From an uncultured Candidatus Peribacteria bacterium (lineage in GTDB: Bacteria; Patescibacteriota; Gracilibacteria; Peribacterales; Peribacteraceae), in NCBI GenBank assembly GCA_964558895.1, contig CAZLFU010000001.1, forward strand, positions 1-63,197: a DNA stretch of 63,197 nt, given 5' to 3'. The notes under the pieces were generated by a model. It made no database searches. It had not been told where the DNA came from and saw only the letters and a program-made list of their open reading frames with translations. The position numbers and the translations under genes were made by a program. Of this stretch, positions 5,681 to 23,522 are shown piece by piece. Numbering within the stretch: the stretch's first letter is position 1; each line of letters starts with the position of its first letter.

Positions 5681-7048
5681 TTAGATCACGGTAAAGGAAC
5701 CTCGCACCATGCCCATGGAGCACATGAAGGCGAGTGTGCCGCGCTGCGGCGCAGTGAATTCAATAATATTTTCACCACTACGAAGTGGCTTAGAGATATT
5801 TAATGAGGGAATGGTGAGGATACTTGTACAGCCGTAGGCCTCTGTTCCATCAATCTTCCAACGGACTGGCACACCCGCTTTTATGGTGAGATTGCTTGGC
5901 TCGTAGTATCCGGCTTCTACCCTCATCGATACCTCCTGGACATCGCCGACCGTTGTCGGTGCAGGCGCGTTGCCTTGTTGATTGCTCGTGGCAAACACGT
6001 GAGACAGGTCAATACCTGTAAGTGCAAATCCGCTATGCAAATTGAAGAGTGCCAAGAGCAGTACGAGCGAACCAGAAAAGCGCAGGAATAACCGAGAGAA
6101 GTTGCCTGTAGCAGTTGAAGATATTGCACTGATTCCAATGAGAGACGGCAGTGTACCTAGGGCGAAAACGAACATGGTCATGGCTCCTGTAATAAAACTT
6201 CCCGAAGCCAAAGCAACAAGTTGTAAAGATTGTGTGAACCCACAGGGGAGGAAAAACGTGAAAGCACCAAGCACTAAAGGCGCTGCAGGATGGTCGCTCT
6301 CCGAGAGATTAGCGATCCAGCGTGAGAGTTTCTTTGGCGGTCTTAGCGGAAAGCTACCCTTTGGAATGACTTCAAGGATAGAGAGGGCAAGGTAGAGCAT
6401 GATCAGAGCCACGGCGATATTCAAGTAGCCCGTCATGCGTGTACTTAGCGTGATGGATTGCCCAAGAGTACCTACAAGCCCACCAAGGACGAAATACGAA
6501 GCTAGACGACCAATATTGAAGTGCAGAAGGGGTTGAAATTTCTGCCAAGGTGTCTCTGCCTGATGCAGTTCGTTATGTTTTGCGGCTAGTGCAAGTAGCA
6601 GGCCTCCTGTGACTGCAAGACAACTACTTGTGCCTGCGACTAGACCGATCAAAAGGACACCTCCAAGCGATAGAGCGCCAGAAGTAGATGGTGCAAGCGA
6701 AACAAGATCGAAAGCTTGAAGCAGTTTGTAGCCTGCAAAAATAATGAGAAGTGCAACACCAATTTCCATCCATTTCCTCTTATCGGGCGAGAGCGTAGTG
6801 ATGGACGGCGCATTTTCATCAATGATCATATAGCCAGCCTTTTCTATTGCGGCGGTAATGCGCTCAGCACTCGGGAGCTGGTCTGATTTGGCTGTGATAC
6901 GGGCAATTCCAGTTCTATGGCTGATGTCCACGTCTTTGATGCCTGGAATAGCTTTGAGCTTTCTTTCAAGCAGCAGCTCGCAACTGGCGCACGTCATTCC
7001 GCCTATACAGACTGTGGCATACCGTTCTTTTGGAGTATTTTCTGACAT
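5681..7048 (-). CDS. Fusion protein: HMA domain + polytopic DsbD_2/TauE-like membrane domain + C-terminal cupredoxin-like domain
   Basis: 'GGMTCASCELLLERKL' HMA motif; about 6-7 hydrophobic helices; C-terminal beta-rich domain ending 'LAFMCSMGMVRGSFTV'. Confidence 0.7.
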   Translation of the reverse strand: MSENTPKERYATVCIGGMTCASCELLLERKLKAIPGIKDVDISHRTGIARITAKSDQLPSAERITAAIEKAGYMIIDENAPSITTLSPDKRKWMEIGVALLIIFAGYKLLQAFDLVSLAPSTSGALSLGGVLLIGLVAGTSSCLAVTGGLLLALAAKHNELHQAETPWQKFQPLLHFNIGRLASYFVLGGLVGTLGQSITLSTRMTGYLNIAVALIMLYLALSILEVIPKGSFPLRPPKKLSRWIANLSESDHPAAPLVLGAFTFFLPCGFTQSLQLVALASGSFITGAMTMFVFALGTLPSLIGISAISSTATGNFSRLFLRFSGSLVLLLALFNLHSGFALTGIDLSHVFATSNQQGNAPAPTTVGDVQEVSMRVEAGYYEPSNLTIKAGVPVRWKIDGTEAYGCTSILTIPSLNISKPLRSGENIIEFTAPQRGTLAFMCSMGMVRGSFTVI

Positions 7049-7107
7049 GATGCGTAAGGAAGAAAAGTAAAAAGCGTGACGAATATCCGCACACGCGAAG
7101 TACTTTT

Positions 7108-7491
7108 CTACTGTCTAAGGACTATGGTTCTAATTCCTGTTTCAGGCGGTGGTCCCTCTGCAGTGAATTGCCAAGGGGGTTGATTAAGAATCGACTCAGG
7201 TAGTGTAACCAGCAAAACACTCGAAACTACAGGGGTTCGTATTTCAATAGTCATGCTTGATGACACCGATGTTTCTGATTTATGAGCAGACAAGCAATGT
7301 CCTGCATCACATGATGTCTTCTTTTCGGATTCATGCTCTTTATGGGGACAATCGTCACAATCTTCGTGCATCGAACTCACGTTTTGCATTGACAGTTCTA
7401 CTGGCATAGCATTTGCGATGGGCATCGTGCAGAAGCTACCGATGACAGCGTGAAGTCCAAAAGCCAGTGCAATCAGTTTTTTCTTGAACAT
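7108..7491 (-). CDS. Secreted Cys/His-rich protein (possible metal binding)
   Basis: Signal peptide 'MFKKKLIALAFGLHAVIGSFCTMPIANA'. 'HEDCDDCPHKEHESEKKTSCDAGHCLSAH'. Last gene of the copper cluster. Confidence 0.5.
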   Translation of the reverse strand: MFKKKLIALAFGLHAVIGSFCTMPIANAMPVELSMQNVSSMHEDCDDCPHKEHESEKKTSCDAGHCLSAHKSETSVSSSMTIEIRTPVVSSVLLVTLPESILNQPPWQFTAEGPPPETGIRTIVLRQ

Positions 7492-7651
7492 TTCACAGTG
7501 ATTATAGCGTATATTCGGAAATAATGGAGATATTGCTTTCGATGGTTTCGAGCCTCGTAATTTCAGATCAAAATTGGGAGATCAAATGGAAGAAACCCTT
7601 TGATGTAGTGGCAAAAACTACTAAAGCCAAGATGGGTAAACCGAAGTCTGA

Positions 7652-7805
7652 AATTGGCTCCGAACATTGAACCAAGCGAGAACCGAAATTAAGGACAATT
7701 GGGAAAGATTAGAAACAGCCTTTTCTTTGCCGCACAGAGCCGTAGCTTGATTGTTCTCCGATCCTGTTTTTTACAAAATGACACAAACGTGTCATGGTGA
7801 AGGCG
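7652..7805 (+). repeat. att-like module copy 1 (orphan 31-codon tail + hairpin)
   Basis: TGG at 7655 through TGA at 7748-7750 encodes WLRTLNQARTEIKDNWERLETAFSLPHRAVA*. Hairpin ATGACAC/GTGTCAT at 7778-7795. An in-frame TGA lies two codons upstream, so there is no gene body. Confidence 0.8.
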
Positions 7806-7849
7806 TGCTGGAATAATCTTCCATCCATTGCACACTAAATTTACCCTTT

Positions 7850-8272
7850 CTATTTCGCGTCAAAATCAATCATCCATTCAATGCCATATTTGTCTCTAAA
7901 CATTCCAAAATAGGAACCCCAAGGACTGTCAGCCATAGGCATTTCTATTGTTCCACCTGCTGAAAGTCCGTTAAAGAATTTGTCTGCTTCTTCTTTGCTT
8001 TCTGCACTGATTGAAATTTTACTTCTGTTTTCATTTTCGTTTACCTTCCCCAAAATTTCTGGAATGTCATTTGCTATTAAGATGTTTTTGCCGATAGGCA
8101 AAGCAATCCGCATTATTTTATTTTCCTCATTTTCTGCGACCGGAAATTCGGGGCTTGCTATGTCTTTGAAACGTATAATTTTTGCGAACTCTCCACCAAA
8201 TACTGATTTATAAAATGTAAATGCTTCTTCTGCATTTCCGTTGAAGTTAATCCAAGGATTGATAACTACCAT
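7850..8272 (-). CDS. VOC/glyoxalase-fold protein (PhnB-like)
   Basis: 'INPWINFNGNAEEAFTFYKSVFGG...MPMADSPWGSYFGMFRDKYGIEWMI' is typical of the PhnB-like family. Start set at ATG 8272 (the track start is GTG). Confidence 0.7.
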   Translation of the reverse strand: MVVINPWINFNGNAEEAFTFYKSVFGGEFAKIIRFKDIASPEFPVAENEENKIMRIALPIGKNILIANDIPEILGKVNENENRSKISISAESKEEADKFFNGLSAGGTIEMPMADSPWGSYFGMFRDKYGIEWMIDFDAK

Positions 8273-8326
8273 AATTTTTATGGTAAATAACACCTAACCA
8301 AAGTGCAAGTTATTTATGGTCGTACA

Positions 8327-8480
8327 AATTGGCTCCGAACGCTGTACGAAGCGAGAACCGAAATCAAGGAGACATGGCAAAGACTCGAAAGTGCATTTTC
8401 ACTGCTACACAGCGCCGCAGTTTAGCGTTTTAGCGATATCGAATTTCAAGAAATGACACGAAAGTGCCATGGTGCAGACA
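8327..8480 (+). repeat. att-like module copy 2
   Basis: TGG at 8330 through TAG at 8423-8425 encodes WLRTLYEARTEIKETWQRLESAFSLLHSAAV*. Hairpin ATGACAC/GTGCCAT at 8453-8470. Confidence 0.8.
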
Positions 8481-8596
8481 TATCTTTTTTAGGGATGTAT
8501 CTATCTTTATATGCTTTCTATTTGATCGCTGAAGCCGTTATAGCAATGTGAAACACATTATTTACAGTAGAAATTAATGTGGTAATATACACAATA

Positions 8597-9046
8597 ATGA
8601 AAACGCCGAATAACATCTTTGTATACGGCTCAATGCTATCTCCTGAAGTTGTTAAGGCGATAACAGGCGAGGAGGGTATTTCTGCAAGCGACGCATGTAT
8701 TAAGAACTTTGCGCGTAGAAAGCTTAAGGACAGAGATTATCCAGCAATAATTCAACACGAAGGCAGTATTGTAATTGGGAAAATTTTGCATGAGGTTCGT
8801 GAAGACTTAGTGCAGCTAATAGATACGTTTGAGGGTGATGAATATGTAAAAAAGGAAGTAAGAGCTGTACTCAGCGATGACTCTGAATTAAGTGCATTTG
8901 CTTATGTATGGAATGGTGACCCTGCAGATGTTCGTAATGAAGATTGGGATTTTGCGCATTTTGAATCACACAAATTACGCACTTTTCTTTTGCAAACTCT
9001 GGATATCATGTCGGGCAATCCATTAAAAGAACATTACAATGATTGA
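8597..9046 (+). CDS. Gamma-glutamylcyclotransferase-like (AIG2/GGACT family) protein
   Basis: 'NIFVYGSMLSPEVV', 'YPAII...GSIVIGKIL', 'LIDTFEGDEYVKKEV' match the AIG2-like fold pattern. Start at ATG 8597. Confidence 0.55.
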   Translation: MKTPNNIFVYGSMLSPEVVKAITGEEGISASDACIKNFARRKLKDRDYPAIIQHEGSIVIGKILHEVREDLVQLIDTFEGDEYVKKEVRAVLSDDSELSAFAYVWNGDPADVRNEDWDFAHFESHKLRTFLLQTLDIMSGNPLKEHYND

Positions 9047-10082
9047 CTATTCTTTTTACAGAAAAATAGGCACTGATGGAATTAAAGACGTTGCAGATAG
9101 TGGACTGCATCCAGATGATCTCTTGCATCAATTAGAAGCCTCTAGATCTGAACTTCCTTATGTCGATCAAATTGAAACAACAAATAACTGTAATTTGAGA
9201 TGTGTCATGTGTCCTCGCACAAAGCATATGACCAGAGCCATAATTAACAGTATGCGAATGGATTTGTTTTGCTGCATTATTGATGAAATTGAAGAATACG
9301 AACAAGAAAAGAAACATCTAGGTATTAGCGAAGCTGATTACAAGCTTAATGGCCCCTTCAATTTACAGTGGCAAGGAAGTGATCATGATATTTTTGATTT
9401 GAGATTGCATCACTTTGGAGCGCCACTTTTAGATCCAGAAATTATCAACAGAGTTCAGTATGTAACTGACAATGCATCTTTTGGCACGCAGTTATCTGAA
9501 ACAGTGATTAATTTAAAGATAGAAAAGGTTAGAGAACTTTTTCACGCAAATCTGCGTAGATTGATTATTGCAATCGATGCCACTAATGCCGATGAATTCA
9601 TTCAAATCAGAGGACGAAAAATTGATTTTGTAAAAGAAATGCAACGTGTTCAGGAAATTGTAGAATTAAAGAAAAAAGAAGGGGCATCAACAAAAATTGA
9701 TATTCAAGTAATCGAATTATCAAAGACAGATGCAGATGAATTCAGCAAGATTTGGGGGGCACATGAAAATGTTGGCATTCTTCGAAAGTCATTCTTCCCT
9801 TATCCTGATATTGATCGATCCTTGGGAAAGCAAAGTGAATCGGATTTTAGTGGTAGTTGTGACTTTCCTTATACGTCAATTACAGTGATGGCTGATGGCA
9901 GGGTTGTTCCGTGTTGTGCCGACTACAATGGCGAAGTGGTACTGGGAGATTTGAATACGCAAAATTTGTATGAAGTATGGAATGGAGATCCATTTAAATT
10001 ATTTAGAGAGAGATTTGTAAAATCTCTATTTTCTCCAAACGACTTATGTAAACGATGCGGCCACTATCCATTTAAGGATTAG
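9039..10082 (+). CDS. Radical SAM enzyme with a C-terminal SPASM-like Cys cluster
   Basis: 'ETTNNCNLRCVMCPR' (CxxxCxxC). C-terminal 'CDFPYTSITVMADGRVVPCCADYNG...CKRCGH'. Confidence 0.7.
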   Translation: MIDYSFYRKIGTDGIKDVADSGLHPDDLLHQLEASRSELPYVDQIETTNNCNLRCVMCPRTKHMTRAIINSMRMDLFCCIIDEIEEYEQEKKHLGISEADYKLNGPFNLQWQGSDHDIFDLRLHHFGAPLLDPEIINRVQYVTDNASFGTQLSETVINLKIEKVRELFHANLRRLIIAIDATNADEFIQIRGRKIDFVKEMQRVQEIVELKKKEGASTKIDIQVIELSKTDADEFSKIWGAHENVGILRKSFFPYPDIDRSLGKQSESDFSGSCDFPYTSITVMADGRVVPCCADYNGEVVLGDLNTQNLYEVWNGDPFKLFRERFVKSLFSPNDLCKRCGHYPFKD

Positions 10083-11109
10083 CTTCTTCAAAAAAATCAG
10101 ACAATATTGTTTTAAAAGTAAAATTGCGGATATTTTCTCTTATTTGATTTAGCGCTTCCGACGACTCATCTTTCGAATCGTCCAGATGTTCCTTGATCAT
10201 CTGCACAGCCTCCTCATTTGAACGGTATAAAAAATTTCTTGGGAAAAAATAGGGATAGCATTGATCGTCAGGCAGTACGGGGTGGCAACCAGAGAGAACA
10301 GATTTCATAACCGAATACCCAAATAGTTCCTGCTTTGCGCAGCTCAAAACGACTTTTGACGAGGCAAGCGTCAAGGCATGCTGTTCATCATTTTCACCAT
10401 GCAGTAATTCGATGTTATCCATTGCAGATAAGGCATCATAGTATTTGCTACCTTTCGCCTGATCCTGTTTTTGAGGAACTGGAATAGCAATTCTGGCTTC
10501 AGGTATACCTTTTGCTATATCAATCAAATCAACTATGCCCTTATCCTCATTTAATCGATGGGGGAATATAACGTCATATTTCTTGTCAGGTGAAGTCGCA
10601 GGTGAAAATGCATCCATGCCATGCGGCATAAACTGCGTCTTTTTCTTTAGTGGTTCTGGCAACTGCGACTCTATATATCGAGACGGCGTGTATATGCTGT
10701 CATACGTATTAGCCCAAGCTGTTTCGTAGCTGCTCAGCCAATCAAATGAATACAGATCTCCACTTAGGAACGAACCACCTGATAAAATAGACCCATATTT
10801 GCATCGGAGATCCCTTTGAAGATGTGCATACCTCAGTATGTCCAAACCTGGATTAAAGAAATCCAAGAATAGTACTTTTGCTAACCCTTTGCGTCTGGTG
10901 AGTTCTGAAATTACTGCGATTTGTCCTTCAATATAACTCTCATCATCCAACAGCTCTCCTTTTAGGTTATTTTCTAGGGGCTCAATTTGCCCTGTTATCT
11001 CAATGGGAATATTCATTTTCCCTGCGCTCACTACGAGAGCCTGTGTCATCTCATCAAACGATGTGCCTTTATAGTGCGGGGGAATTGCAATGACGTTTGA
11101 TGCTTCCAT
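10072..11109 (-). CDS. Glycosyltransferase-like protein (GT-B fold, GT4-like)
   Basis: C-terminal 'QELFGYSVMKSVLSGCHPVLPD' resembles the E(x7)E/GT1-GT4 motif; 345 aa. Overlaps the convergent radical SAM gene by 11 nt. Confidence 0.45.
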   Translation of the reverse strand: MEASNVIAIPPHYKGTSFDEMTQALVVSAGKMNIPIEITGQIEPLENNLKGELLDDESYIEGQIAVISELTRRKGLAKVLFLDFFNPGLDILRYAHLQRDLRCKYGSILSGGSFLSGDLYSFDWLSSYETAWANTYDSIYTPSRYIESQLPEPLKKKTQFMPHGMDAFSPATSPDKKYDVIFPHRLNEDKGIVDLIDIAKGIPEARIAIPVPQKQDQAKGSKYYDALSAMDNIELLHGENDEQHALTLASSKVVLSCAKQELFGYSVMKSVLSGCHPVLPDDQCYPYFFPRNFLYRSNEEAVQMIKEHLDDSKDESSEALNQIRENIRNFTFKTILSDFFEEANP

Positions 11110-11117
11110 ATGAAATA

Positions 11118-12173
11118 TTATGAAGAGAATCTAACTATGTCGCACTTATCCTTGTCTGGATGCATGCCGATAACTACATCATTCTGAGTGAGATCGCTGA
11201 CTGCATAATCTTCAAAATACTCCGAATGATCTTTATCTTTTTCATTCATCATTAGCGTAGGAATGCTTGCCGCTGTTAAGCGGATATTTGCTTCCAAGAT
11301 GCTTATGGTTGATCCATTTAACATGAAATCGATTCCAAAAAATCCTTCATAGTTTTCAATGAGAGGATGCAGTTTTTCAATACCAGACCTCAATTGCTCT
11401 TTTACTTCTGGCGTAATCGAATCCAAGCTCATCATTTCAGAGCCAGCGAAATGCTTGTTATCGATTATTTTTTGCTGTGAATACCCAAAAATGACAGTCC
11501 CTAGGGACTTACTTTTGACGACTTGTATGCTGGATGGAATACCTTGAACAGCATCTTCTACAAACCAGAGACTGAAACCATCATTGAAAATTTTATCCTT
11601 TATTTCTTCAACAGTACTAAACTCAGCAGATCGATGAAGAGTGTATCCGCCTGAACCGAATTGTCTTTTAAAATATACGTCACGTTTCAAGTAACTTTCA
11701 TCTACGCCTTCTGCATCAATTTTCCTCCATATTGGAGTCTGATCGCCCAACAGTTCTTTTTGAATTATCTTGTCGTTATTTTTTTTGAAATCGGAATATG
11801 AGTAATTAATGTTGAGATTATGATCAGTTGCAAAACGATCAGCATCTGGATGCGGAATGGCTACCCATAGCTCACTAACATTTTCTGGGATTTTTGCTGG
11901 TGACAATCGTTGGTAAACAGAAGAAGTTGCCTTCTCCGCCATGGGAATTTCCAAGAGAGAATTCGAAGAGCTATACTGGAGAGCACCTGAGAGCTCATTC
12001 GTTGCTACATGTTTGTTAGTGAGAACCCACGGCATGAGGTTTTCGTATTTCCACATGTCTACTATTTCCAAATCCAGTGATTCCCCAATCGCTCTGAAAT
12101 CAACCGAATATAAAGCGTGATCTCTTTGAAGAAAATCAATTTCCGAAGGCTTCAGAGCTTTGAAGGTAATCAT
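11118..12173 (-). CDS. ATP-grasp family ligase
   Basis: 'KRQFGSGGYTLH', 'FFGIDFMLNGSTISILEANIRLTAASIP' (ATP-grasp 'E-x-N-x-R' region). Confidence 0.55.
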   Translation of the reverse strand: MITFKALKPSEIDFLQRDHALYSVDFRAIGESLDLEIVDMWKYENLMPWVLTNKHVATNELSGALQYSSSNSLLEIPMAEKATSSVYQRLSPAKIPENVSELWVAIPHPDADRFATDHNLNINYSYSDFKKNNDKIIQKELLGDQTPIWRKIDAEGVDESYLKRDVYFKRQFGSGGYTLHRSAEFSTVEEIKDKIFNDGFSLWFVEDAVQGIPSSIQVVKSKSLGTVIFGYSQQKIIDNKHFAGSEMMSLDSITPEVKEQLRSGIEKLHPLIENYEGFFGIDFMLNGSTISILEANIRLTAASIPTLMMNEKDKDHSEYFEDYAVSDLTQNDVVIGMHPDKDKCDIVRFSS

Positions 12174-13231
12174 AAGTAATGTGTGTAAATAAGATGAGGA
12201 TCAATATAAGATTCCAGCTTACAGATATCAGGCTCTTCGGTCGAGAAGATGTATAGATTGGATGAGGAGCTATATTGTAAAGCCGAGGGATCAATTGAAT
12301 TGCTTTGCAGTAATTCGGATGCCCTACCTCTTTCAATGAAATTATCGGGCAATTCATATTGGCTAAAATTCTGACGTACTTCTTTTAGAGATATTCCACA
12401 TTCAGAAAGCATCTGATGTAAATTGCGCAAATTGCGCCCCATCATGGTAGGGTTAAGAATTACGTAAAATTCCTTTTCTTCCCTATCTTTCTTTAGGAAT
12501 TTCAACCCTGATGTGATGAAGGATAATGAGCCGTGTAGGGTATAGGGAGGATCTGTAATGAATGTATCTACCGTATCTACAATTGCTTCTTGTCCTAGTT
12601 CGGTTACATCACCTTCAATAATTCTCAAAGATGAATCTGCATTCTTTAAATAGCTGATGATTCTTGGATCTTTTTCAAAAACAACAACCTTCGCCCACGG
12701 CTCCCTGCCGAGTTCTGCACTCAGTAGATCGTCATCGCCAATGACAGCGACATTTAAATGTTCAACATTTGGATATCTTTCTTTTAGAAGAGCAACTCTC
12801 CGTATTCTGGAGGCAATATCACATGGAAACTGATTATACTCGGACATAGGTTCAATAGTTACTTGATGTTGGTCGTTTGCATTCAATATTTCGCCTCTTG
12901 TTCTAAACAATCGCTGGATTTGACCAGATGTATTAATGCTTATCAATTTCAGATTAAGAGACACTTCTAAAATTGGGCCAAGATTGTCGAAATCAGCGGC
13001 ACTCCTTTTTACAAAATCATCTAAATTTTCTGCATTCATCAGTATCTCCACTAATTGTGCGAATGCCAATCGACCTAGCCTGTTGTTACTCCTCCATGAT
13101 TCCACATTCCTTTGGTCGCCCCCTCTAAGATCGAGAGGAATGCTTTGCAAATAATCCTCATAAGCATGTTCAATTTCTGGCATAAAACGCAATGCTTCAT
13201 TGGGGCCAGATGATTGATTCTGAGTTTCCAT
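12170..13231 (-). CDS. BpsA/DUF43-like aminopropyltransferase (branched-polyamine synthase family)
   Basis: 'VAVIGDDDLLSAELG', 'VVVFEKDPRII', 'FITDPPYTLHGSLSF'. 4-nt overlap with the ATP-grasp gene. Directly downstream of the AdoMet decarboxylase. Confidence 0.55.
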   Translation of the reverse strand: METQNQSSGPNEALRFMPEIEHAYEDYLQSIPLDLRGGDQRNVESWRSNNRLGRLAFAQLVEILMNAENLDDFVKRSAADFDNLGPILEVSLNLKLISINTSGQIQRLFRTRGEILNANDQHQVTIEPMSEYNQFPCDIASRIRRVALLKERYPNVEHLNVAVIGDDDLLSAELGREPWAKVVVFEKDPRIISYLKNADSSLRIIEGDVTELGQEAIVDTVDTFITDPPYTLHGSLSFITSGLKFLKKDREEKEFYVILNPTMMGRNLRNLHQMLSECGISLKEVRQNFSQYELPDNFIERGRASELLQSNSIDPSALQYSSSSNLYIFSTEEPDICKLESYIDPHLIYTHYL

Positions 13232-13243
13232 AAAATTGAGGGA

Positions 13244-13645
13244 TTATCGCATTTTTCTTTCAAGTACACTTTTCACAATATTGTTGGATCTGAAGTGCGT
13301 ACTGATTTCATCAAACAAGGCATGAGCAGCTTCGCTGTTATCACGAGTATGATTGCAAACAAACAAATTAACGCTTACATAGCCTTCCATAGGCCATGTA
13401 TGTACGGCGAAGTGAGATTCTGCCAACGCAACGACTCCTGTAAAACCAACATCAAATTCATGATAAACAGACTGCAGCTCAGTGAGGTTATATTTATTGA
13501 GCAAATCTGATATTAGTTTTTTGAACTCAGTCATTTTAATACTTAAGAGGTATTCACAATCGCAGTCTTTGAGATCCCCAACTATCTCAATACCAGCAAT
13601 ATCTTGAGAATTGCCTGTGGGAAGCTCTGCGTCAGACATTGACAT
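13244..13645 (-). CDS. speH: S-adenosylmethionine decarboxylase proenzyme (pyruvoyl type, SpeH-like)
   Basis: 'VVALAESHFAVHTWPMEGYVSVNLFVC' contains the E-S self-cleavage site and HTWPE-type motif; 133 aa. Confidence 0.8.
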   Translation of the reverse strand: MSMSDAELPTGNSQDIAGIEIVGDLKDCDCEYLLSIKMTEFKKLISDLLNKYNLTELQSVYHEFDVGFTGVVALAESHFAVHTWPMEGYVSVNLFVCNHTRDNSEAAHALFDEISTHFRSNNIVKSVLERKMR

Positions 13646-13679
13646 ATTATTAAAAGATTGTTATAAATATGTCAAGTTT

Positions 13680-14012
13680 ATGGATAAATCCGATATTGAA
13701 GGCATATTAGAACGGGCCTATGAGTTTATTGAGGCCAATTCGGTCAGGGGTCATTCCACAGTGGATGATGTCATGATGGTCTCTCCTCATACTCATTCGC
13801 TCGATTCTGTACTGGCCTATATCTATCAGCAAAGAGCGGAAGTGGGTGATCAAATCACTCAGTTGCTCGAAACACGAATATTGGATCTGCGTAATGAAAT
13901 AGACATATTAGCCTTTTTATACCAAGCAGACGAGGATTCTTTGGCACGTGCTCATAAAGCCAAGCAGGATATAGCAGAAACTATTAGAGCGCATTTCCAC
14001 AAAACGACATGA
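13680..14012 (+). CDS. Hypothetical helical protein (110 aa)
   Basis: ATG at 13680 avoids overlap with speH. ATGA overlap with the next gene. No family recognised. Confidence 0.4.
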   Translation: MDKSDIEGILERAYEFIEANSVRGHSTVDDVMMVSPHTHSLDSVLAYIYQQRAEVGDQITQLLETRILDLRNEIDILAFLYQADEDSLARAHKAKQDIAETIRAHFHKTT

Positions 14013-14833
14013 ATTTACCAAGCCCTTTCGGTACGGATGAACCTCGTAAGGCAAGCGACTGTCGTCCAGGTGGAGATGATTTGGCGAATATCCAAAAAGA
14101 TCGCTCGGTTTTTCGAGCAGAGGAGGGTTCTCTGCGAGTATCGGGAGACAAGGTGTTCTATACAATTCAAGGGGAGGGCGTATCTATGGGTTCACCTGCA
14201 TCTTTTTTGCGTTTGCATAATTGCAATTTGAAATGTTCTTGGTGCGATGCATGGTACACATGGAATACGGATAGCGTAGAATTTTGGACGGAGAGCGTAC
14301 TGTGGACTATCGAAGAAACACGGAGAAATATTGAATCAAGTTGGGGATGCGAGAATGTTGCGATTTCCAAAAGATTGGTTGTGACTGGCGGCGAGCCATT
14401 GATTCAGCAGCAGGGAATTGAATCATTGTTAGGTGATATGAAAGATTGGTCTGTTGAAATAGAAACAAATGGCACTATTCTTCCCTCTGACTATCTTCTC
14501 AATCGTTGCCAATTTAATTGTTCCCCTAAACTAAGTAATTCTGGGAATCAGGTTCAGCGTCGCATCAGGGCAGATGTATTGAAAGTATTGAATCAGGCTA
14601 ATACGAATTTTAAATTTGTAGTACGCGACGAAGATGATGTTGAGGAAGTCGATACTGATTTTATCCAACCCCATTCTCTTGATGCGAATAAGGTTATTCT
14701 AATGCCCGAAGGCGTGACGATGGGGGAAGTGGCTGAGAATGCAAGGAAGGTAGTTGAGCTAACCAAAAAGAAGGGCTATCGCCTGCTTAATCGTTTGCAC
14801 TGCGATATATGGGGAGCAAAGCGTGCGGTATAG
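14009..14833 (+). CDS. QueE-like radical SAM enzyme (7-carboxy-7-deazaguanine synthase family) with a ~45-aa N-terminal extension
   Basis: 'FYTIQGEGVSMGSPASFLRLHNCNLKCSWCDAWYTW' is the QueE-type CxxxCxxC context. 'VVTGGEPLIQ'. Confidence 0.7.
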   Translation: MNLPSPFGTDEPRKASDCRPGGDDLANIQKDRSVFRAEEGSLRVSGDKVFYTIQGEGVSMGSPASFLRLHNCNLKCSWCDAWYTWNTDSVEFWTESVLWTIEETRRNIESSWGCENVAISKRLVVTGGEPLIQQQGIESLLGDMKDWSVEIETNGTILPSDYLLNRCQFNCSPKLSNSGNQVQRRIRADVLKVLNQANTNFKFVVRDEDDVEEVDTDFIQPHSLDANKVILMPEGVTMGEVAENARKVVELTKKKGYRLLNRLHCDIWGAKRAV

Positions 14834-14872
14834 GAAATGCAGTGTGTGACGTATTTGAATAAATATTTTATT

Positions 14873-15027
14873 CATTGGCTCCGAACCCTGTACCACGCGA
14901 GAACCGAGATTAAGGATACTTGGGAAAGACTTGAAACAGCGTTTTCCTTGCTGCACAGGGCGGCTGTTTGATTGTTTGTATTTTGCGTTTCTCGAACAAA
15001 TGACACATGTGTGCCATGGCGCAGCCG
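14873..15027 (+). repeat. att-like module copy 3
   Basis: TGG at 14876 through TGA at 14969-14971 encodes WLRTLYHARTEIKDTWERLETAFSLLHRAAV*. Hairpin ATGACAC/GTGCCAT at 15000-15017. Confidence 0.8.
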
Positions 15028-15072
15028 TGCCAAAGTTGATCAATCAAATAAAATATGTAAAAGTACTCTCTT

Positions 15073-15540
15073 ATGCAAAAGACGCATCAAGATAGAAAAT
15101 GGTTGGCGATTGCAGCGAGTTCAGTATTCGTGATTGCAGTGATCTTGGTTCAAATTATTTTCTTTCAAGGTGATTACATTTGGTGGATTTCATATCAACC
15201 ACTCTCTCCTTTGTCTTGGGATCAGATAGGCACTGTTACATTCCGCACGTTGGGCGCACTCCTTTATGGAACCGGATTTTATCTAGCGCTATATAGAGGC
15301 ATGAAAGCCCTGGGCTTTACTTTTGCGGATTATAAATACGTCAAACTCTTCGTTTGGCTTTCATTGATGGTGATTGTGGATTGGATACAGCGTTTCGTGG
15401 TTTATGGGTTCAACGAACTCTGGTCTCTATATTGGAATGTCATTCGATTGATAGTTTTTCTGTTTCCTTCTTACTGCATTATTATATTGGGATTCTTGGC
15501 ATTCTTCTTGGTTAGAAGAGCTTTGAAAAGAAAGATTTAA
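15073..15540 (+). CDS. Hypothetical integral membrane protein (4 predicted TM helices)
   Basis: Hydrophobic segments throughout; no family recognised. Confidence 0.5.
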   Translation: MQKTHQDRKWLAIAASSVFVIAVILVQIIFFQGDYIWWISYQPLSPLSWDQIGTVTFRTLGALLYGTGFYLALYRGMKALGFTFADYKYVKLFVWLSLMVIVDWIQRFVVYGFNELWSLYWNVIRLIVFLFPSYCIIILGFLAFFLVRRALKRKI

Positions 15541-15558
15541 CCGTGCAACAAATCATCT

Positions 15559-15780
15559 ATGAAGAAAAAGAGCCAAAAACCAGACATGATCATCAAGACG
15601 GGCAGAAGTGAAATACATCTCTATTCACACTATGAGAAGGACCCAGAGAAGGCGCGTCAGGCGAAAGAGGAATTCGACAGAGGACTCCGGTACATAGCCA
15701 AGCAGGGCGGTTGGCTAGATGCATTGGAAGAAAGGGATGCTGCTCTCGCAAGGCTTATGCAGTTATTGCCTCTCGATTAG
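15559..15780 (+). CDS. Hypothetical small protein (73 aa)
   Basis: ORF only; follows the membrane protein gene after 18 nt. Confidence 0.35.
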   Translation: MKKKSQKPDMIIKTGRSEIHLYSHYEKDPEKARQAKEEFDRGLRYIAKQGGWLDALEERDAALARLMQLLPLD

Positions 15781-16790
15781 CGACTGCGTTTTCTCTCCAA
15801 GAACAGGCTCTTTGATGGAACCCAGTCACGTGCGAGCTCATCAGCCTTTTGCAGCCAGCGATCAATTCTATCTTCAGGGGCTACGGATTCACCCCAGTAT
15901 TCAACGAACACTGCATCTTCGAGGCGTGCTGCTGCTTCCATCATTTCATTTTCAATGAGCTTCAGTGCGCGTTCAATATAGATTCCACCCTCATCGTCAT
16001 TATCAGGATTCGCCACGCTTCCAGCGGAAAACAGATCTCTTGCCTGATGGCAAAGAACGCCATGATAGGTAAGCAAATAGAGAACAGCATCATCGTACTT
16101 GTCCCTTGATCTGCCGGACTGCACGATCTTTGGACACAGCAATGCAGCTTCCGCACGCATTTTTGTTTTTTCTTCCATGGACAGTTTCGTGTAGAGGCGT
16201 GCTTGCACAGGAAGGGTGTGTCCAGGGTCGTCTGGTGAATCTTCCAACCACCACATGCGCTCACCTGGCTTTAAGCGACCACGCGCATAGGCGCGAATGT
16301 GGCGCATCTTGTCTTCCATCGGCAAGTCGCGGAATTCATCGTATGAAATTCCCATTTGCTCGAACAATGATTTCTCCGCTGCTATTTCCACTTCAAAGCG
16401 AGGAACGTGAGAAGTGCGCACATGCATAACGCATTTGTCGTATTCGTCCCATCGTACTTCGGGAGTTCCACCCATTTTGCCAAACACGAGGAAGATCTTT
16501 TTCACTTCCTTGATGCGGTTTGTTTCCAGCACGCTATTCGCAACGCTTCGCCAGGTGTCGCTCGTTGTGAATTTTACTTCAATGCCGAAATCGCCGATTG
16601 CTACATCTGGAAACGCTTGCGGATGCGGGTCAAAATCAATAGCCACTTTCATTCCCTTCATTATTTCCTGCGCGACTTCCCTAACTCGATCCTCAAATTC
16701 TTTGGAGGACTGAAATGGTTTTTGCCTAGCCTCTGCGGTCAATGTCTCGCAGATGGCTTTCAGTATTTTCTCAAAATCTTGCTGGGTCAT
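15777..16790 (-). CDS. Probable type II restriction endonuclease (PD-(D/E)xK)
   Basis: 'FPDVAIGDFGIEVKFT' gives a D...E-x-K catalytic pattern. Immediately downstream of a C5 methyltransferase on the same strand. Confidence 0.5.
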   Translation of the reverse strand: MTQQDFEKILKAICETLTAEARQKPFQSSKEFEDRVREVAQEIMKGMKVAIDFDPHPQAFPDVAIGDFGIEVKFTTSDTWRSVANSVLETNRIKEVKKIFLVFGKMGGTPEVRWDEYDKCVMHVRTSHVPRFEVEIAAEKSLFEQMGISYDEFRDLPMEDKMRHIRAYARGRLKPGERMWWLEDSPDDPGHTLPVQARLYTKLSMEEKTKMRAEAALLCPKIVQSGRSRDKYDDAVLYLLTYHGVLCHQARDLFSAGSVANPDNDDEGGIYIERALKLIENEMMEAAARLEDAVFVEYWGESVAPEDRIDRWLQKADELARDWVPSKSLFLERKRSR

Positions 16791-16824
16791 TGAGCGTTAT
16801 CTTGCTCGCAAACCGCATAATTGT

Positions 16825-17841
16825 CTATTTCTGCTTATCGAGGCAATCCTGTACCGCTTTTGCCAAATGCCAAGCAAAGACCGGCGCTACTGCATTGCCA
16901 ACCTGTCTTTCAGTTTCCCTTAACTTTGAATCAAAAATAAAGTCGTCTGGGAATGACTGGAAACGCGCTGCTTCTCTCATAGAGATGCGACGGCGCAGTT
17001 TGTAGTGGAACTGAATGTTGCCATGGCACTCTGCACGAATCGTATAGCCAGGACGTTCGGCAATTAGTTTCCTATTTCCCTGTTCGGAGCTTTTGTTAGC
17101 GCGACTCCAAACATGATTAAGATTTTCATTTTCAGGCATTGATTCCAGATCGCATATCGCCTCACGAGCAGTTATATGCTTATCCTTGGTTAAAGGTGCA
17201 ACAGGAGGATTGAAGTCAGCCACCTCTGGGCGAGTTCCTACAATAATCACCCTTTCGCGCGTCTGTGGAACGCCATAATCAGCCGCGTTGTAGAGCTTGA
17301 ACGAAATGTTGTAACCAAGAGCTTTAAAATCAGCAAGAACACGCTTTAAAGAATCTTCATTGTGCTTCATCAGCAATCCTTTCACATTTTCAGCCAAGAA
17401 AATCTTTGGCTGCACTCTTGATACCACTTCAACCATTGCCCGATAGAGACCGCTGCGCTTACCGTCTACACCGGCTCCTTTGCCGTTTACAGATATGTCC
17501 TGACAAGGAAAGCCCCCGATAACCACATCTGCCGTTTGGGGCATTTGATCCATTACTTGCCAAATATCTCCAGTCACGATGTCGGCCCCAACATTCTTTT
17601 TGTAGGTCCTGCAAGCAGCTTCATTAAGTTCATTCGCCCAAATGATTTCAAATGGCAAACGTTCATATTGCTTACCAAGAGACTTAAAATCTCCTCTGAA
17701 ACCCAAATCCATCCCGCCACAACCAGAGAATAGAGAAATAACCGAAAAAGTTCTTACTGGCTGCTGCATTCCAAGCTCAATGGCACGTTTAGTTATTGTT
17801 CCGATTTTTATTTCCTTTGGAGGTGCGATTGTTGGATTCAT
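16825..17841 (-). CDS. DNA (cytosine-5)-methyltransferase
   Basis: 'LFSGCGGMDLGF' (motif I), 'GGFPCQDIS' (motif IV), 'ENV', 'QTRER', 'GNAVAP'. Confidence 0.9.
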   Translation of the reverse strand: MNPTIAPPKEIKIGTITKRAIELGMQQPVRTFSVISLFSGCGGMDLGFRGDFKSLGKQYERLPFEIIWANELNEAACRTYKKNVGADIVTGDIWQVMDQMPQTADVVIGGFPCQDISVNGKGAGVDGKRSGLYRAMVEVVSRVQPKIFLAENVKGLLMKHNEDSLKRVLADFKALGYNISFKLYNAADYGVPQTRERVIIVGTRPEVADFNPPVAPLTKDKHITAREAICDLESMPENENLNHVWSRANKSSEQGNRKLIAERPGYTIRAECHGNIQFHYKLRRRISMREAARFQSFPDDFIFDSKLRETERQVGNAVAPVFAWHLAKAVQDCLDKQK

Positions 17842-17980
17842 CGGTGCGAATTATACATGGTTAACTCGGCACGCCCCACGCAAAATATGTCATTCTGGCA
17901 ACAAAGTAGCAGTTTTTCATATCCCATTCAGATAAACAGACGTTCTATATGCTCATAGAACAATCTGATAGATCGGTATA

Positions 17981-18406
17981 ATGATCAAGATGGAAACTCG
18001 TCGCAGAATAGGCAGACAAAGTGGTCGCCCTTCCAGTGCTACACCAGAAAAATTAGCAGTACTTATCGCTGCTATAGAGCATGGCTTTAGTTTAATTGAA
18101 TCGCTCCAACAAGCTGCATTATCGGATGATGCCTATCGGCGACTGATTAAAAAAAGCCCCAAGTTCCGTCAGGAAATTACAGCTGCCAAGATGAAATTAG
18201 TAATGCTTGCTCGTTCTAGTGTTGCCCGTTCAATCAATGAAGGGGATATGGCTACCGTTCGTTGGTATCTTGAACGGAAATGCCCAGAGGAATTCAGTAT
18301 GAGAGTTGTTAAAGATAAATCAGACAATCCACTGCCAGAAGGCACGGTGATTGTGCTGCCTGGTAGTCACCCTCATCCGCGAATTATCCCCGAAGAAAAG
18401 GATTAG
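17981..18406 (+). CDS. HTH DNA-binding protein (small-terminase-like / regulator)
   Basis: N-terminal basic HTH-like region. 'ATVRWYLERKCPEEF' resembles the C-terminal motif of phage small terminase/HTH proteins. Assignment is tentative. Confidence 0.4.
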   Translation: MIKMETRRRIGRQSGRPSSATPEKLAVLIAAIEHGFSLIESLQQAALSDDAYRRLIKKSPKFRQEITAAKMKLVMLARSSVARSINEGDMATVRWYLERKCPEEFSMRVVKDKSDNPLPEGTVIVLPGSHPHPRIIPEEKD

Positions 18407-18442
18407 ATCTAAATTCTCGCTATGTCCAACACAGCCGGAATG

Positions 18443-20236
18443 CTACTTCCAATGCTTACCAAACAATGGATGTTTGGGTGTAAGGACTATTACTGCCTCA
18501 TCTTCGATTTTACCTCCTGTGAGCTGTTCGGCTCCTGTGCCAAAATCCAAATCCTTAATTGTTCCCTCTTGATTCAAAGTAACTATGTATTGGAATTTTA
18601 AACCTTCACCTTCTTTTTTCATTAAAAAATTATAAAGGTGAACGAAATGTGCCTTATCAATCCCATCAAAAATTCCATCGTGAATTAAAAAGCGAGGACA
18701 ATGTATATTTTTTTCAATTGCATGGAATAAGACTGCAAGATCATAAATCAATGTGCGCCCCTTATTCTTACCGTATGAAAGATTTGATGGAATTATTACA
18801 TCCATATTAACCTTGGAATCCTTGTTCTTATTTGCAGAAAATACAAAATTTGCCTCATCTTTATTCTCTGCATAAATAGCATCGTGAACAAAGAAAAATA
18901 TCCTTCTAAAATCTTTTAACTGTTCTTTTATCTCAATACAAAATTGTTCGATCTCTGCATAGAGTGTAATGCTCGCTTTCTCCCTCTCTGTTACTTCTCT
19001 GCTTAAATCCTGATAAGTTTTTAGCTTTCCTTCAAGATCACTCAACCTCTCTCTTTTTTTACTTAAATCTAAATATGCTTCTGACAAATCCTTAATAGCC
19101 TCTTTGGCAGAGAGAAATTCGAAGAGTTGAGCACGTTTCTTTTCAAGCTCGGAAATCCGTTTTTCTTTTGTAGAAATTGTCGCTGTTAATTCAGTAACTT
19201 CTGATTCTAAAAATTCTTTCCTTGATTGTGCGATCTTCTTTCTGAATTTAATCGCCTCTTCCAAAGTTTTCTTGATATTATTTGCTAGCAGCTCATTCAA
19301 TTCCTTATACAGATTCTTTATCTTTGTGGGACGTATATCCTCATCGTCATAAGAAAAGCTTTCCTGATAGGCTTCAATTTGTTTGCGATCAGTAAAATTC
19401 TGATGCCAAAGCTCCTTAATCTCTTCGGTTAATTTATTCGATTGTGCTTCTACATCGGCATACTGACTAGCTAATTCAAACTTCCGTATGTGCTGCTCAA
19501 AGACAGAGATATTAGCTTGTAATTTATCCAGTTCACTTTCAGCCTGTCCGATGTCTTTCAAGTTATAAGTATCCTCCACGAGAGATTTAACTTCTCTTAA
19601 TGCCGGTTTCTTTGCTTTTATTTCCGAAATGATTTCGTAATTTTTCTGAAACAACCTATTGCTGATTCCCAGCAAAAATAAATGCAATGGTATTAGTTCA
19701 ATTTCTTTCGCTCTATCATGCAAATAGTTGATCGGATCTTTAAAGTTAGTTTTCGTATTAGACGATTGCGCTTTAATAAAAAAAGGCATTAATTTCCTAA
19801 ACCACGTATTTGAATATTTCCCTTCATAAGTCTCATTCTTAAAAATCAGATCACAAAGAATTTTGCTCAATTCATGATCGGTAGAAGTATGCCTGTATTC
19901 ATTTAGAGTTCCCGTCTTTTTGCCAAACATGATTTCTTTATTTGGATTCTGGAAACCTCTTTTTATAACATAAAGATCGTCCCCAACATAAAACTCAAGA
20001 ACAATCTTGTATTCTTCCAAATCATTATTCGCCTTTGCAGATTTAATATGACTAGTCTCACCAGACAGAAGGCAATAATCAATTAGGTTTAATAGCAAAG
20101 ATTTTCCTAAACCATTCAATGACTTCCTGCTGTCTCCATCTTCACCCTTTTTTGCATATACGAAATTGAATCCAGGCTTGAATTCAACGGCTTCAAATAA
20201 ACCTGCCGGCTCTGAATATAATTTATGCAGGAACAT
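18443..20236 (-). CDS. SMC-like ABC ATPase with long coiled coil (DUF2326 / ABC-three-component-system type, tentative)
   Basis: Walker A 'LNGLGKSLLLNLI'; ~250-aa coiled-coil-like Lys/Glu-rich middle; C-terminal 'RFLIHDGIFDGID' (Walker B/D-loop-like). Confidence 0.55.
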   Translation of the reverse strand: MFLHKLYSEPAGLFEAVEFKPGFNFVYAKKGEDGDSRKSLNGLGKSLLLNLIDYCLLSGETSHIKSAKANNDLEEYKIVLEFYVGDDLYVIKRGFQNPNKEIMFGKKTGTLNEYRHTSTDHELSKILCDLIFKNETYEGKYSNTWFRKLMPFFIKAQSSNTKTNFKDPINYLHDRAKEIELIPLHLFLLGISNRLFQKNYEIISEIKAKKPALREVKSLVEDTYNLKDIGQAESELDKLQANISVFEQHIRKFELASQYADVEAQSNKLTEEIKELWHQNFTDRKQIEAYQESFSYDDEDIRPTKIKNLYKELNELLANNIKKTLEEAIKFRKKIAQSRKEFLESEVTELTATISTKEKRISELEKKRAQLFEFLSAKEAIKDLSEAYLDLSKKRERLSDLEGKLKTYQDLSREVTEREKASITLYAEIEQFCIEIKEQLKDFRRIFFFVHDAIYAENKDEANFVFSANKNKDSKVNMDVIIPSNLSYGKNKGRTLIYDLAVLFHAIEKNIHCPRFLIHDGIFDGIDKAHFVHLYNFLMKKEGEGLKFQYIVTLNQEGTIKDLDFGTGAEQLTGGKIEDEAVIVLTPKHPLFGKHWK

Positions 20237-20465
20237 TTGTTTGCTTTAGAAAGATTTTATAATCATTGATTTCTATCAGATCTGCCGACCAAAGAAAGGT
20301 AAGCAAATCAAAATATCTTTTGATATTTAATTTTTTATTCCTCTCACTCAATTCCTGAAAAAGACTTTCAATATCATGCACCCTTTGTTTCAGCGCAGCA
20401 ATTGCCCACCCTCCCATTACAAGAAGATTGTCGTTAATATTCTCATATTTGGTTGGATAAAGCAT
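20223..20465 (-). CDS. Small helical protein, candidate ABC-3C 'middle component'
   Basis: 80 aa. Overlaps the ATPase gene by 14 nt and lies 2 nt after the upstream gene. The position matches the 3-gene architecture. Confidence 0.4.
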   Translation of the reverse strand: MLYPTKYENINDNLLVMGGWAIAALKQRVHDIESLFQELSERNKKLNIKRYFDLLTFLWSADLIEINDYKIFLKQTNVPA

Positions 20466-20467
20466 AG

Positions 20468-21061
20468 TTAGAAAAGTTGAGGATTTTGAGAATTTGCTCT
20501 TTCCGTTTCAGTTGCAGTCTTCTTGCCTATGTCACACTTCTCAAACACCAACAAGATGATCGCAATGCAAATATACAGAGCCTTTGAATTACCTCGATGA
20601 GTTTCTGGGAGATAATGTTTTGCCAAATCAACGATATGGTTTGCATCTTCCATTTTGTGATCACAACTTTCACTGTTGCAAAGAGATCTATATTCCCTTT
20701 GGACATCGAATACGAATCCAGTGACCACTTCTGGTTCTTTATCTCCTAATAAAACTTCGATTTCATTTTTATGTATCCATACCTTGCGAAACATAAGCTT
20801 AACATCCGTGGCTGCATTCGCAGTAAAATTTAATTCGATCTTCTCTTTTAAATCTCGCAGATAATCCGTGCCTGTCTGCATTGTTGAATCTTCAGGCGTA
20901 ACAGTTTGATTGGCAAAAATATGTTCCAGTATTTCAACGACTAATATTCTATCCGCTTCCTCTGTCTTTGCTTCCTCTGAATAATTCAAATTAACAGTGC
21001 TTCCACCATCTGCTTGAACTTGTATGGATTTGTTGCCGGCAGATTGATTCTGATCACTCAT
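20468..21061 (-). CDS. Candidate effector component of the ABC-3C-like operon (197 aa, no recognised domain)
   Basis: Operon position. The N-terminal 'QNQSAGNKSIQVQA' motif is shared with the upstream small TM protein. Confidence 0.35.
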   Translation of the reverse strand: MSDQNQSAGNKSIQVQADGGSTVNLNYSEEAKTEEADRILVVEILEHIFANQTVTPEDSTMQTGTDYLRDLKEKIELNFTANAATDVKLMFRKVWIHKNEIEVLLGDKEPEVVTGFVFDVQREYRSLCNSESCDHKMEDANHIVDLAKHYLPETHRGNSKALYICIAIILLVFEKCDIGKKTATETERANSQNPQLF

Positions 21062-21261
21062 GAATTTCCTCCGAGATGGATTTTTGAGTCATTTTGAGCT
21101 TGATACTGCTTCGATCCATTTCCTGCTGATTGATTCTGCGTATGATGAATCTTTGTAATATTTTTATTAGTCACAAAAAACCCAATAACAGCCACGAGTG
21201 TCGTGACTAACAGGGAGATTAATTCAGTAAGTGCGGGGTTGGCGTTTAGGTATTCAAGCAT
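21058..21261 (-). CDS. Small single-pass membrane protein (67 aa)
   Basis: TM helix 'LISLLVTTLVAVIGFFV'. ATGA overlap with the next gene. First gene of the 4-gene operon. Confidence 0.45.
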   Translation of the reverse strand: MLEYLNANPALTELISLLVTTLVAVIGFFVTNKNITKIHHTQNQSAGNGSKQYQAQNDSKIHLGGNS

Positions 21262-21471
21262 GGGCGCGAGTTTACCCTTTTTATATCCGCAGTTGTACTA
21301 GAAATTTGCTACCCCTTGCAGAATATCGCCACTGCACAAGTAACCAATGCCTTGGGAGGCTTTTGGATATACCCCAGACGCATCTTTGCTTCTTGAATGA
21401 CAAAGGGTGCATCGCGAAGATTCGGATACACCACAGGTCGTTTATGCAGACCGAAGCCCTGACAAATAATG

Positions 21472-21741: not shown

Positions 21742-21782
21742 GGAAAGAGGGGGGAAGAGGCAGAACAGGTGGTATCGCCAAA

Positions 21783-23493: not shown

Positions 23494-23522
23494 AAATAGA
23501 TACAAGTTAAACGTGCGTAGTG

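Follow-up and report, generated by a model that had tools for sequence, protein, structure and literature searches.

Along a 63,197-nt stretch of DNA from an uncultured Candidatus Peribacteria bacterium (contig CAZLFU010000001.1, forward strand; hereafter the window), three divergent copies of a module of about 154 nt each carry 31 codons that evolve like coding sequence and yet stand without a gene body. How the end of a gene comes to persist apart from the gene is the question that this locus raises. Very probably the three repeats are the detached last 31 codons of large serine recombinase (LSR) genes: the attachment site of a mobile element (attP) would lie inside the element's own recombinase gene, and integration at a tRNA-Asn gene would split that gene, leaving its body at one end of the element and its last codons, here called the tail, at the other.

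The window holds exactly three copies of the module, all on the plus strand. Repeat finding returned one direct-repeat family, at 7651-7802, 8326-8477 and 14872-15023, and an nhmmer profile run over the whole window matched only 7653-7805, 8328-8480 and 14874-15027, with E-values of about 1e-48 and a next best match at E = 0.1. Their parts are given below, where the core is the heptanucleotide TGGCTCC, the P-arm is the sequence upstream of it, and attL and attR are the left and right junctions of an integrated element.

7652 to 7805, plus strand: module copy 1, an attL-type site (core 7655-7661; tail with stop codon 7655-7750; palindrome 7778-7795)
8318 to 8480 (repeat 8327-8480), plus strand: module copy 2, a complete attP-like site (P-arm GGTCGTACAA 8318-8327; core 8330-8336; tail with stop codon 8330-8425; palindrome 8453-8470)
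14873 to 15027, plus strand: module copy 3, attL of the complete element (core 14876-14882; tail with stop codon 14876-14971; palindrome 15000-15017)

The modules open with TGG CTC CGA ACN CTG (Trp-Leu, then RTLY...), and from the TGG at 7655, 8330 and 14876 each reads 31 codons to a stop at the identical position, the tail peptides of copies 1, 2 and 3 being WLRTLNQARTEIKDNWERLETAFSLPHRAVA, WLRTLYEARTEIKETWQRLESAFSLLHSAAV and WLRTLYHARTEIKDTWERLETAFSLLHRAAV. An earlier note on this DNA had described these same-strand frames, and its peptides proved exact; its counts for copy 1 against copy 3 (17 of 93 nt different, nine of the 15 altered codons synonymous) were likewise reproduced. By codon position those differences number 3, 4 and 10, while copies 2 and 3 differ at 3, 1 and 14 positions and the variable columns across all three copies number 6, 5 and 14. 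Among seven tails, comprising the three window copies and those of contig CAZOAX010000028 (locus L001) and of loci L018, L010 and L008, the ratio of nonsynonymous to synonymous substitution rates (dN/dS) lay between 0.03 and 0.31 in 20 of 21 pairs, well below 1, so that the note's proposal of purifying selection on a peptide is supported in a larger set than the one from which it was drawn. The similarity starts abruptly at TGGCTCC, and all eight tails examined begin at that same nucleotide. In copy 1 an in-frame TGA does sit two codons 5' of the TGG, as had been stated. The note had also cautioned that an antisense frame shares the third codon positions; this frame is open over the conserved part, but neither a start nor a stop is conserved in it and the replacements that it implies are harsher, which favours the plus frame.

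The first 30 or so nucleotides beyond the tail stop codon vary between copies. They give way to a conserved palindrome, ATGACAC-N4-GTG(T/C)CAT, and about 12 further conserved bases, with GG(T/C)G(C/A)AG after the palindrome. In copy 1 the palindrome reads ATGACAC-N4-GTGTCAT (7778-7795). At L008 (about 11160-11180) both of its halves are changed symmetrically, to ATGGCAT/ATGCCAT, and L026 (3150-3180) has a variant form. A promoter and terminator scan did not flag the palindrome, for which candidate functions are those of an operator, of a weak terminator on the minus strand or of a site to which an accessory factor binds.

The core recurs, in the same Trp-Leu frame, at the end of an LSR gene elsewhere in the window, where that gene runs into a tRNA gene on the opposite strand.

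23970 to 25502, plus strand: LSR gene, 510 aa, with Resolvase (PF00239), Recombinase (PF07508) and Zn-ribbon (PF13408) domains in Pfam
25476 to 25494, plus strand: attR junction (P-arm GGTCGTACAA 25476-25485, then TA, then core TGGCTCC 25488-25494)
25488 to 25562, minus strand: tRNA-Asn (GTT) gene, the integration target, which remains intact, its last 7 nt being supplied by the core

The protein has the domains of a large serine recombinase (Resolvase, recombinase, zinc-ribbon/coiled-coil C-terminal), and Y, R, K, S and T residues near its N-terminus are almost invariant in the family alignment. The gene ends ...GGTCGTACAATA TGG CTC CCC CGG TAG and the protein ...GRTIWLPR (in longer form ...SPFRQKAESEGRTIWLPR). 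Its last 15 nt overlap the tRNA-Asn gene in antisense, as the reverse complement of the tRNA 3' end ..CCGGGGGAGCCA, and the core is the reverse complement of GGAGCCA, the final 7 nt of the tRNA. Within the window GGTCGTACAA is found only at copy 2 and at the end of this gene, each time 12 nt upstream of a TGGCTCC. Each module consists of a detached LSR gene 3' end and, after it, some 60 nt of untranslated sequence that is conserved. The earlier note had taken the modules to be gene 3' ends detached from any 5' part; that they are detached 3' ends stands, whereas the absence of a 5' part does not hold for copy 3, whose missing portion is the LSR gene at 23970-25502, parted from its tail when the element integrated at tRNA-Asn. 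The note had named, as an outcome that would speak against its reading, a known gene whose intact copy lies elsewhere without any link to recombination; here, recombination is the link.

Neither Pfam nor NCBIfam has a match for the 31-aa peptides, and a concatenated two-tail query gave none in a word-indexed search of a 5.8-billion-protein set. A scan of a genome-contig collection with a 20-mer yielded one true and four chance matches; tail peptide patterns run against JGI metagenomes and IMG/VR confirmed no relative, and the hairpin pattern had one chance match only among viral contigs. Seven matches, three of them multi-stretch and apparently repetitive, came from an HMMER run in which a 31-aa profile of the three tails was compared exhaustively with 1.84 billion representative proteins. 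The others include a 376-aa LSR fragment (P0006) that ends GKIWLHRLYEARTQITDTYRRMETAFPLLHAA (...SGKIWLHRLYEARTQITDTYRRMETAFPLLHAA), a 96-aa open reading frame (ORF) with about 65 residues upstream of the tail (P0003), and an orphan-tail ORF (P0001). No recombinase similarity was detected in the residues preceding the tail of P0003, whose detected similarity to P0006 is confined to the tail and a few residues before it.

With the reconstructed full-length LSR as query, about 30 family members were recovered at 34-98% identity, and these divide according to what follows the junction. Most of them end W-L-P-R-L-D-S-N-Q-x-P..., which is a tRNA acceptor stem and T-arm read in antisense, and in all six loci of P0020 and P0010 that have 3' flanking sequence (L012-L017) the 3' end of the LSR gene overlaps a tRNA-Asn(GTT) gene on the opposite strand. 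In P0028-P0033 and P0036, which are 37-44% identical, the frame instead runs past the Trp codon into a homologous tail of the pattern W(C/W)..L.DVRTEV.DT...LE.A(F/Y/H). Together with P0006 and P0003, these are ORFs that cross the Trp codon in frame into a tail, as a recombinase gene spanning its own attP should. Because full-length homologues carry a homologous tail, the tail is an old, conserved part of this LSR family, and the comparison with serine recombinase C-termini for which the earlier note had called bears out the connection, both in LSR fragments that end in the tail and in distant full-length members. The AlphaFold model of one full-length homologue, P0029, has a mean predicted local distance difference test score (pLDDT) of 87.8 and a fold matching solved full-length serine integrases with E-values down to 1e-17. 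In this model residues 502-507 form a disordered, low-confidence linker that contains the junction Trp, and the tail is predicted to form one terminal alpha-helix of 27 residues (511-537).

The sequences around the junction also have the symmetry of a recombination site. Since integrated homologues read antisense tRNA beyond TGGCTCC and full-length ones continue into the tail, this heptanucleotide would be the crossover core of an attP that lies inside the LSR reading frame. It is flanked by inverted half-sites:

Window LSR gene and copy 3: GTCGTACA, 16-nt spacer, TGTACCAC
Copy 2: CGTACA, 16-nt spacer, TGTACG, a perfect inverted repeat centred on the core
L019: GTCGTTCAGC, 12-nt spacer, GCTGACCGAC
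L021: GTCGTCCTGG, 12-nt spacer, CCTGGACGAC

The four sites share one dyad centre, between the T and the C of TGGC-TC-C, and the half-sites differ between subclades yet stay complementary, covarying across three subclades. A short core, imperfect inverted half-sites and no long end repeats is the architecture expected of a serine-integrase attP, with a crossover dinucleotide that likely lies inside the 7-bp core, and it is from sequence that we infer recombination activity. Since the core corresponds to the final 7 nt of the tRNA, the tRNA survives integration undamaged and the duplication comes to no more than 7 bp. Nor is the tRNA-Asn gene the sole target. The LSR frame of P0035, a homologue at 39% identity, runs into tRNA-Tyr(GTA), and the W-W at its junction is encoded by TGGTGG, which is CCACCA in reverse complement. 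In P0033, a full-length relative, an identical W-W precedes the tail. At L023 an LSR gene of the same family (6359-8083, 39% identical) runs antisense through a whole tRNA-Tyr(GTA) gene (7892-7977). Its W-W junction codons match the CCACCA end of tRNA-Tyr, so that the design of a split gene is not restricted to a single tRNA.

On this basis a cycle can be proposed. With attP inside the LSR frame and its core encoding Trp-Leu, attP would recombine with the 3' end of the tRNA gene, and the crossover is placed at the TC dinucleotide of the dyad centre. Integration would leave the tRNA intact and the LSR body abutting it, so that the protein would end in residues read from the antisense strand of the tRNA (WLPR in the window), and would carry the last 31 codons to the opposite end of the element, forming attL. 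Excision would rejoin body and tail into a full-length LSR with its conserved terminal alpha-helix, and a second element adjoining the first could likewise bring the two together. The predicted products of excision are an attP junction reading GGTCGTACAATATGGCTCCGAACCCTGTACC and an empty attB reading GAAGTCTGAAATTGGCTCCCCCGGTAGG or its local equivalent. Tails would evolve like coding sequence because every intact gene makes use of the peptide, and would be further constrained because their first 25 or so nucleotides double as the P' half-site bound by the recombinase. Candidate roles for the terminal helix are integration competence, directionality and protein stability; that the tail acts as a C-terminal degradation signal, given its endings AAV, AVA and HAA, is a conjecture by analogy with the prophage repressor of PMC4557955.

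Both parts of the divided gene are met in a single element of the window, whose recombinase has its C-terminus replaced from target DNA and whose displaced 3' segment lies at the far end.

14876 to 25494, plus strand: complete integrated element of 10.6 kb, from the tail of copy 3 to the LSR/tRNA junction

From the core of copy 3 (14876) to that of the junction (25488) it measures 10,612 bp and comprises, in order, the tail, a 155-aa membrane protein, a restriction-modification pair, a DUF2326 protein, conserved unannotated backbone ORFs and the LSR gene. An exact-protein look-up of the 155-aa neighbour matched only a 778-bp contig. The same element is present on contig CAZOAX010000028 (loci L001 and L011), with an LSR 98% identical, a backbone about 95-98% identical and a tail with its downstream gene 95% identical. 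There, tail and LSR stand at opposite ends, about 11.8 kb apart, and homology to the window begins exactly at the left edge of the module, the sequence further left being unrelated. The layout of tail, cargo and LSR is repeated at L018, where the tail occupies 1939-2091 and an 85%-identical LSR 10001-11644; in the window, CAZOAX010000028 and L018 the tail lies 9.6-11.8 kb upstream of the LSR. At the 3' end of the L018 LSR (11528-11650), the gene is followed by TGGCTCCCCC and then by unrelated sequence that includes a DUF2779 gene, GmrSD and a second partial recombinase. No tRNA was found at this end, where only 10 nt match the tRNA 3' end, and the remainder of the tRNA was perhaps replaced by another insertion.

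The cargo varies within this frame. The restriction-modification cassettes differ at the same position of the element: a C5 methylase and a 337-aa ORF in the window (15777-17841), as against an N6/N4 methylase, a 215-aa ORF and a Cas4/RecB-like nuclease in L011 (691-3876). Directly upstream of the LSR gene, three ORFs of 255, 208 and 102 aa (window 22050-23910) keep their position in L011, L012, L015 and L018. Pfam assigns no family to these three or to the other conserved backbone ORFs, and in the eight unannotated ORFs of the element that were tested, which include those upstream of the LSR, it detected no further Resolvase domain. The three are candidate accessory or directionality factors.

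Copies 1 and 2 delimit two further segments to the left of this element, neither of which has a recombinase gene.

7655 to 8329, plus strand: recombinase-less segment between copies 1 and 2, 675 bp, with one glyoxalase-family gene on the minus strand (7850-8293)
8330 to 14875, plus strand: recombinase-less segment between copies 2 and 3, 6.5 kb, with a seven-gene biosynthetic cluster (8579-14833)

The cluster encodes a GGACT cyclotransferase, a radical S-adenosylmethionine (rSAM) protein with a SPASM domain, a glycosyltransferase, an ATP-grasp protein, a BpsA-like aminopropyl transferase, an AdoMet decarboxylase and a second rSAM protein. An exact-protein look-up of the rSAM-SPASM gene, the sole look-up made for either segment, returned no record. 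Between 7000 and 15100 there is no LSR pseudogene remnant except for six codons at copy 2, which is preceded by GGTCGTACAA, identical to the bases before the core at the end of the LSR gene. With its dyad intact, copy 2 may still be a recombination substrate. In copy 1 the P' half-site is damaged, with TGAAC in place of TGTAC, and the private changes of this copy comprise five amino-acid replacements, L26P and Y6N among them, against three synonymous substitutions, a balance that, small as the numbers are, suggests relaxed constraint. Copies 1 and 2 most likely mark the older units of a tandem array, which have since lost their recombinase genes. The simplest history is a succession of integrations at one tRNA gene, in which the newest element would adjoin the tRNA and the recombinase genes of its predecessors would later have disappeared. 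Other loci provide a series of decay: at L008 an LSR lacking its catalytic domain is joined to a tail, at L026 a tail follows about 65 codons whose recombinase origin is unconfirmed, and at copy 2 only the P half-site (12 nt) is kept.

Several observations weigh against the explanation by integration-split recombinase genes. No close-clade LSR (at least 75% identity) was found joined to its own tail, so that the excised circle was not observed, and the joined or full-length examples are either more distant (24-57% identity) or truncated genes. An empty site was not seen for the close clade, and Pfam recognised neither a recombination directionality factor nor a partner recombinase among the backbone ORFs. 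The conserved palindrome after the stop codon is left unexplained by an attP inside the gene. Finally, copy 3 has no remnant of a P-arm on its left, so that, if copies 1 and 2 stem from a tandem array, deletions with an endpoint at the core have to be assumed.

These points have to be set against what the alternatives would leave unexplained. Were the modules random pseudogene debris, that is, 3' remnants produced by ordinary deletions unrelated to the position of an attachment site, then the want of recombinase genes at copies 1 and 2, the partly deleted LSR genes joined to tails at L008 and L026, and the excess of replacements among the private changes of copy 1 would all be accommodated. 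Random deletions would not, however, have one common endpoint, and the tails share theirs with the nucleotide at which every integrated LSR gene switches to tRNA sequence; the low dN/dS and the covarying dyad symmetry centred on that junction likewise make such an origin very improbable. Still less probable is a structured non-coding RNA or cis-regulatory element with an incidental codon-like pattern. The modules are intergenic, and the 7-bp hairpin after the stop codon is conserved, with a compensatory change in L008 relative to ATGACAC/GTGTCAT. Nevertheless, no Rfam 15 family matched any module at the gathering threshold or copies 1 and 2 at E-values up to 10; folding energies were no better than those of shuffled controls (z from -1.1 to +1.1), the RNAalifold covariation terms were positive, and hence penalising, on both strands with only the small hairpin supported, and the 93-nt part is homologous to LSR C-termini at the protein level. 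An independent small protein of about 40-44 aa could draw on in-frame starts upstream of two copies, a GTG at 8303 in copy 2 (40-aa ORF) and an ATG at 14837 in copy 3 (44-aa ORF). It is scarcely credible in view of the in-frame stops two to three codons upstream in copy 1 and the L001 copy, the TGA and TAA within three codons upstream in L018, the lack of a conserved start codon, the mutually unrelated upstream sequences and the failure of the tail to match anything in the word-indexed search.

A different kind of alternative concerns copies 1 and 2 alone. They might be working alternative attL sites, or bound recombinase-less cargo cassettes moved in trans by the single LSR, with nested excision products of 10.6, 17.2 and 17.8 kb. 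The intact P half-site and perfect inverted repeat of copy 2 and the open frames and common stop kept by both tails agree with this, as do the att-bounded Dehalococcoides ssrA-array islands that lack a recombinase and have been proposed to be cis-mobilisable (PMC3146451). On the other side stand the mutated half-site and altered peptide of copy 1, and neither segment has been shown elsewhere, the one look-up made for them being empty. Such mobilisation is unlikely, if conceivable, and is compatible with the splitting of recombinase genes by integration, from which it differs only on the status of the two copies. A further proposal, also rather doubtful, is that the split is an evolved state switch. 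The full-length, helix-bearing enzyme would then arise only from the excised circle or a tandem junction, the integrated, helix-less enzyme would differ in activity, directionality or stability, and arrays of spare tails would serve as alternative partner sites. If that were true, one recombinase could acquire or shed adjacent blocks of cargo that lack a recombinase of their own, and serine recombinases would have their equivalent of cassette accretion at tRNA genes.

Other classes of repeat-bearing element were also considered. Integron cassettes depend on the tyrosine recombinase IntI and on attC sites with R''/L'' and L'/R' boxes that form an imperfect long hairpin; the module has no overall hairpin, and no integron integrase turned up among the ORFs scanned. 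Diversity-generating retroelements have a nearby reverse transcriptase and mismatches confined to the adenines of one repeat copy. Here the differences involve all bases, mostly at third codon positions, and the ORFs scanned contain no reverse transcriptase domain. Classical tRNA-gene islands of the Islander type have a tyrosine integrase and a displaced fragment of the tRNA gene, roughly at least 15 bp long, at the far end, whereas the recombinase here is of the serine type and only 7 tRNA nucleotides are repeated there. Remnants of IS200/IS605 guide RNAs and a tag frame like that of transfer-messenger RNA (tmRNA) were considered and dropped.

Elsewhere in the window, the last 315 nt of a tmRNA gene (36648-37095) are repeated with 100% identity at 44100-44414, 7.3 kb downstream. 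The repeat spans the start of an unusually long, 30-aa tag frame through to the CCA, and the interval holds rSAM, HAD, MetK, AAA-NUDIX and IS1595-type transposase genes without an integrase. As the target duplication of a tmRNA island, such a repeat is very long as well as perfect.

Staphylococcal SCC composite islands are CcrAB serine-recombinase elements that stand in tandem at the 3' end of rlmH/orfX. They resemble the present array in their pile-up at the 3' end of one gene, with repeated att sites between units, some of which lack a recombinase (compare PMC3146451); they differ in that integration does not split the ccr genes and in that their target is protein-coding. In the mycobacteriophage BPs, integration-dependent immunity rests on an attP within coding sequence, such that integration removes a C-terminal segment (PMC4557955). 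The behaviour of a protein is thereby changed, much as may happen here, although the split gene is that of the repressor and the integrase is a tyrosine recombinase. As cited in PMC4383910, SSV1-type archaeal integrases and IntP of myxophage Mx8 have an attP inside the integrase gene, and in these systems too integration at a tRNA gene splits or alters the recombinase gene, changing the C-terminus of IntP in the case of Mx8. They are, however, tyrosine recombinases with long blocks of tRNA-gene identity, whereas the present enzyme is a serine recombinase whose site has a core of 7 bp between half-sites in dyad symmetry.

The closest parallel is provided by the Dehalococcoides ssrA islands, in which the 3' end of the LSR gene dsiB (product about 500-540 aa) always overlaps the att site, and which form tandem arrays beside a single RNA gene that include recombinase-less islands (McMurdie et al. 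2011, PMC3146451). Those authors proposed that full function of dsiB may require the circular form or a neighbouring island that supplies its 3' fragment. The overlap of the LSR 3' end with the att site, the array at one RNA gene and the units without a recombinase are common to both systems, as far as DsiB is known by its published description. The target there is the tmRNA gene, with a 20-bp direct repeat, as opposed to tRNA-Asn (or tRNA-Tyr) and a 7-bp core; a small partner recombinase, DsiA, accompanies DsiB together with a ParB/Mom module, whereas Pfam found no second Resolvase-domain ORF here; and the displaced 3' fragment, hypothesised there, is in the present family a conserved 31-codon segment under purifying selection and predicted to be helical. 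With tRNA-Asn as its target and no second Resolvase-domain ORF among the eight tested, the element departs from the features that define that system.

In 2014, serine integrases were stated not to be known to target tRNA genes (PMC4383910). What sets the present family apart is the tRNA 3'-end target, the 7-bp core, the lack of a recognisable partner recombinase and a displaced fragment that is conserved, selected and predicted to be helical. Since this LSR family targets tRNA-Asn and tRNA-Tyr with an overlap of only 7 bp, island finders based on displaced tRNA-gene fragments would miss such elements, and in annotation the recombinase looks odd at its C-terminus and the tails look like unexplained intergenic repeats. 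The elements also carry defence genes, in the form of restriction-modification pairs that differ between copies of one element. A recombinase gene rebuilt only on excision would give an element a simple, testable way of sensing its integration state, and removal or addition of the helix in serine-integrase tools could serve as a test of effects on directionality.

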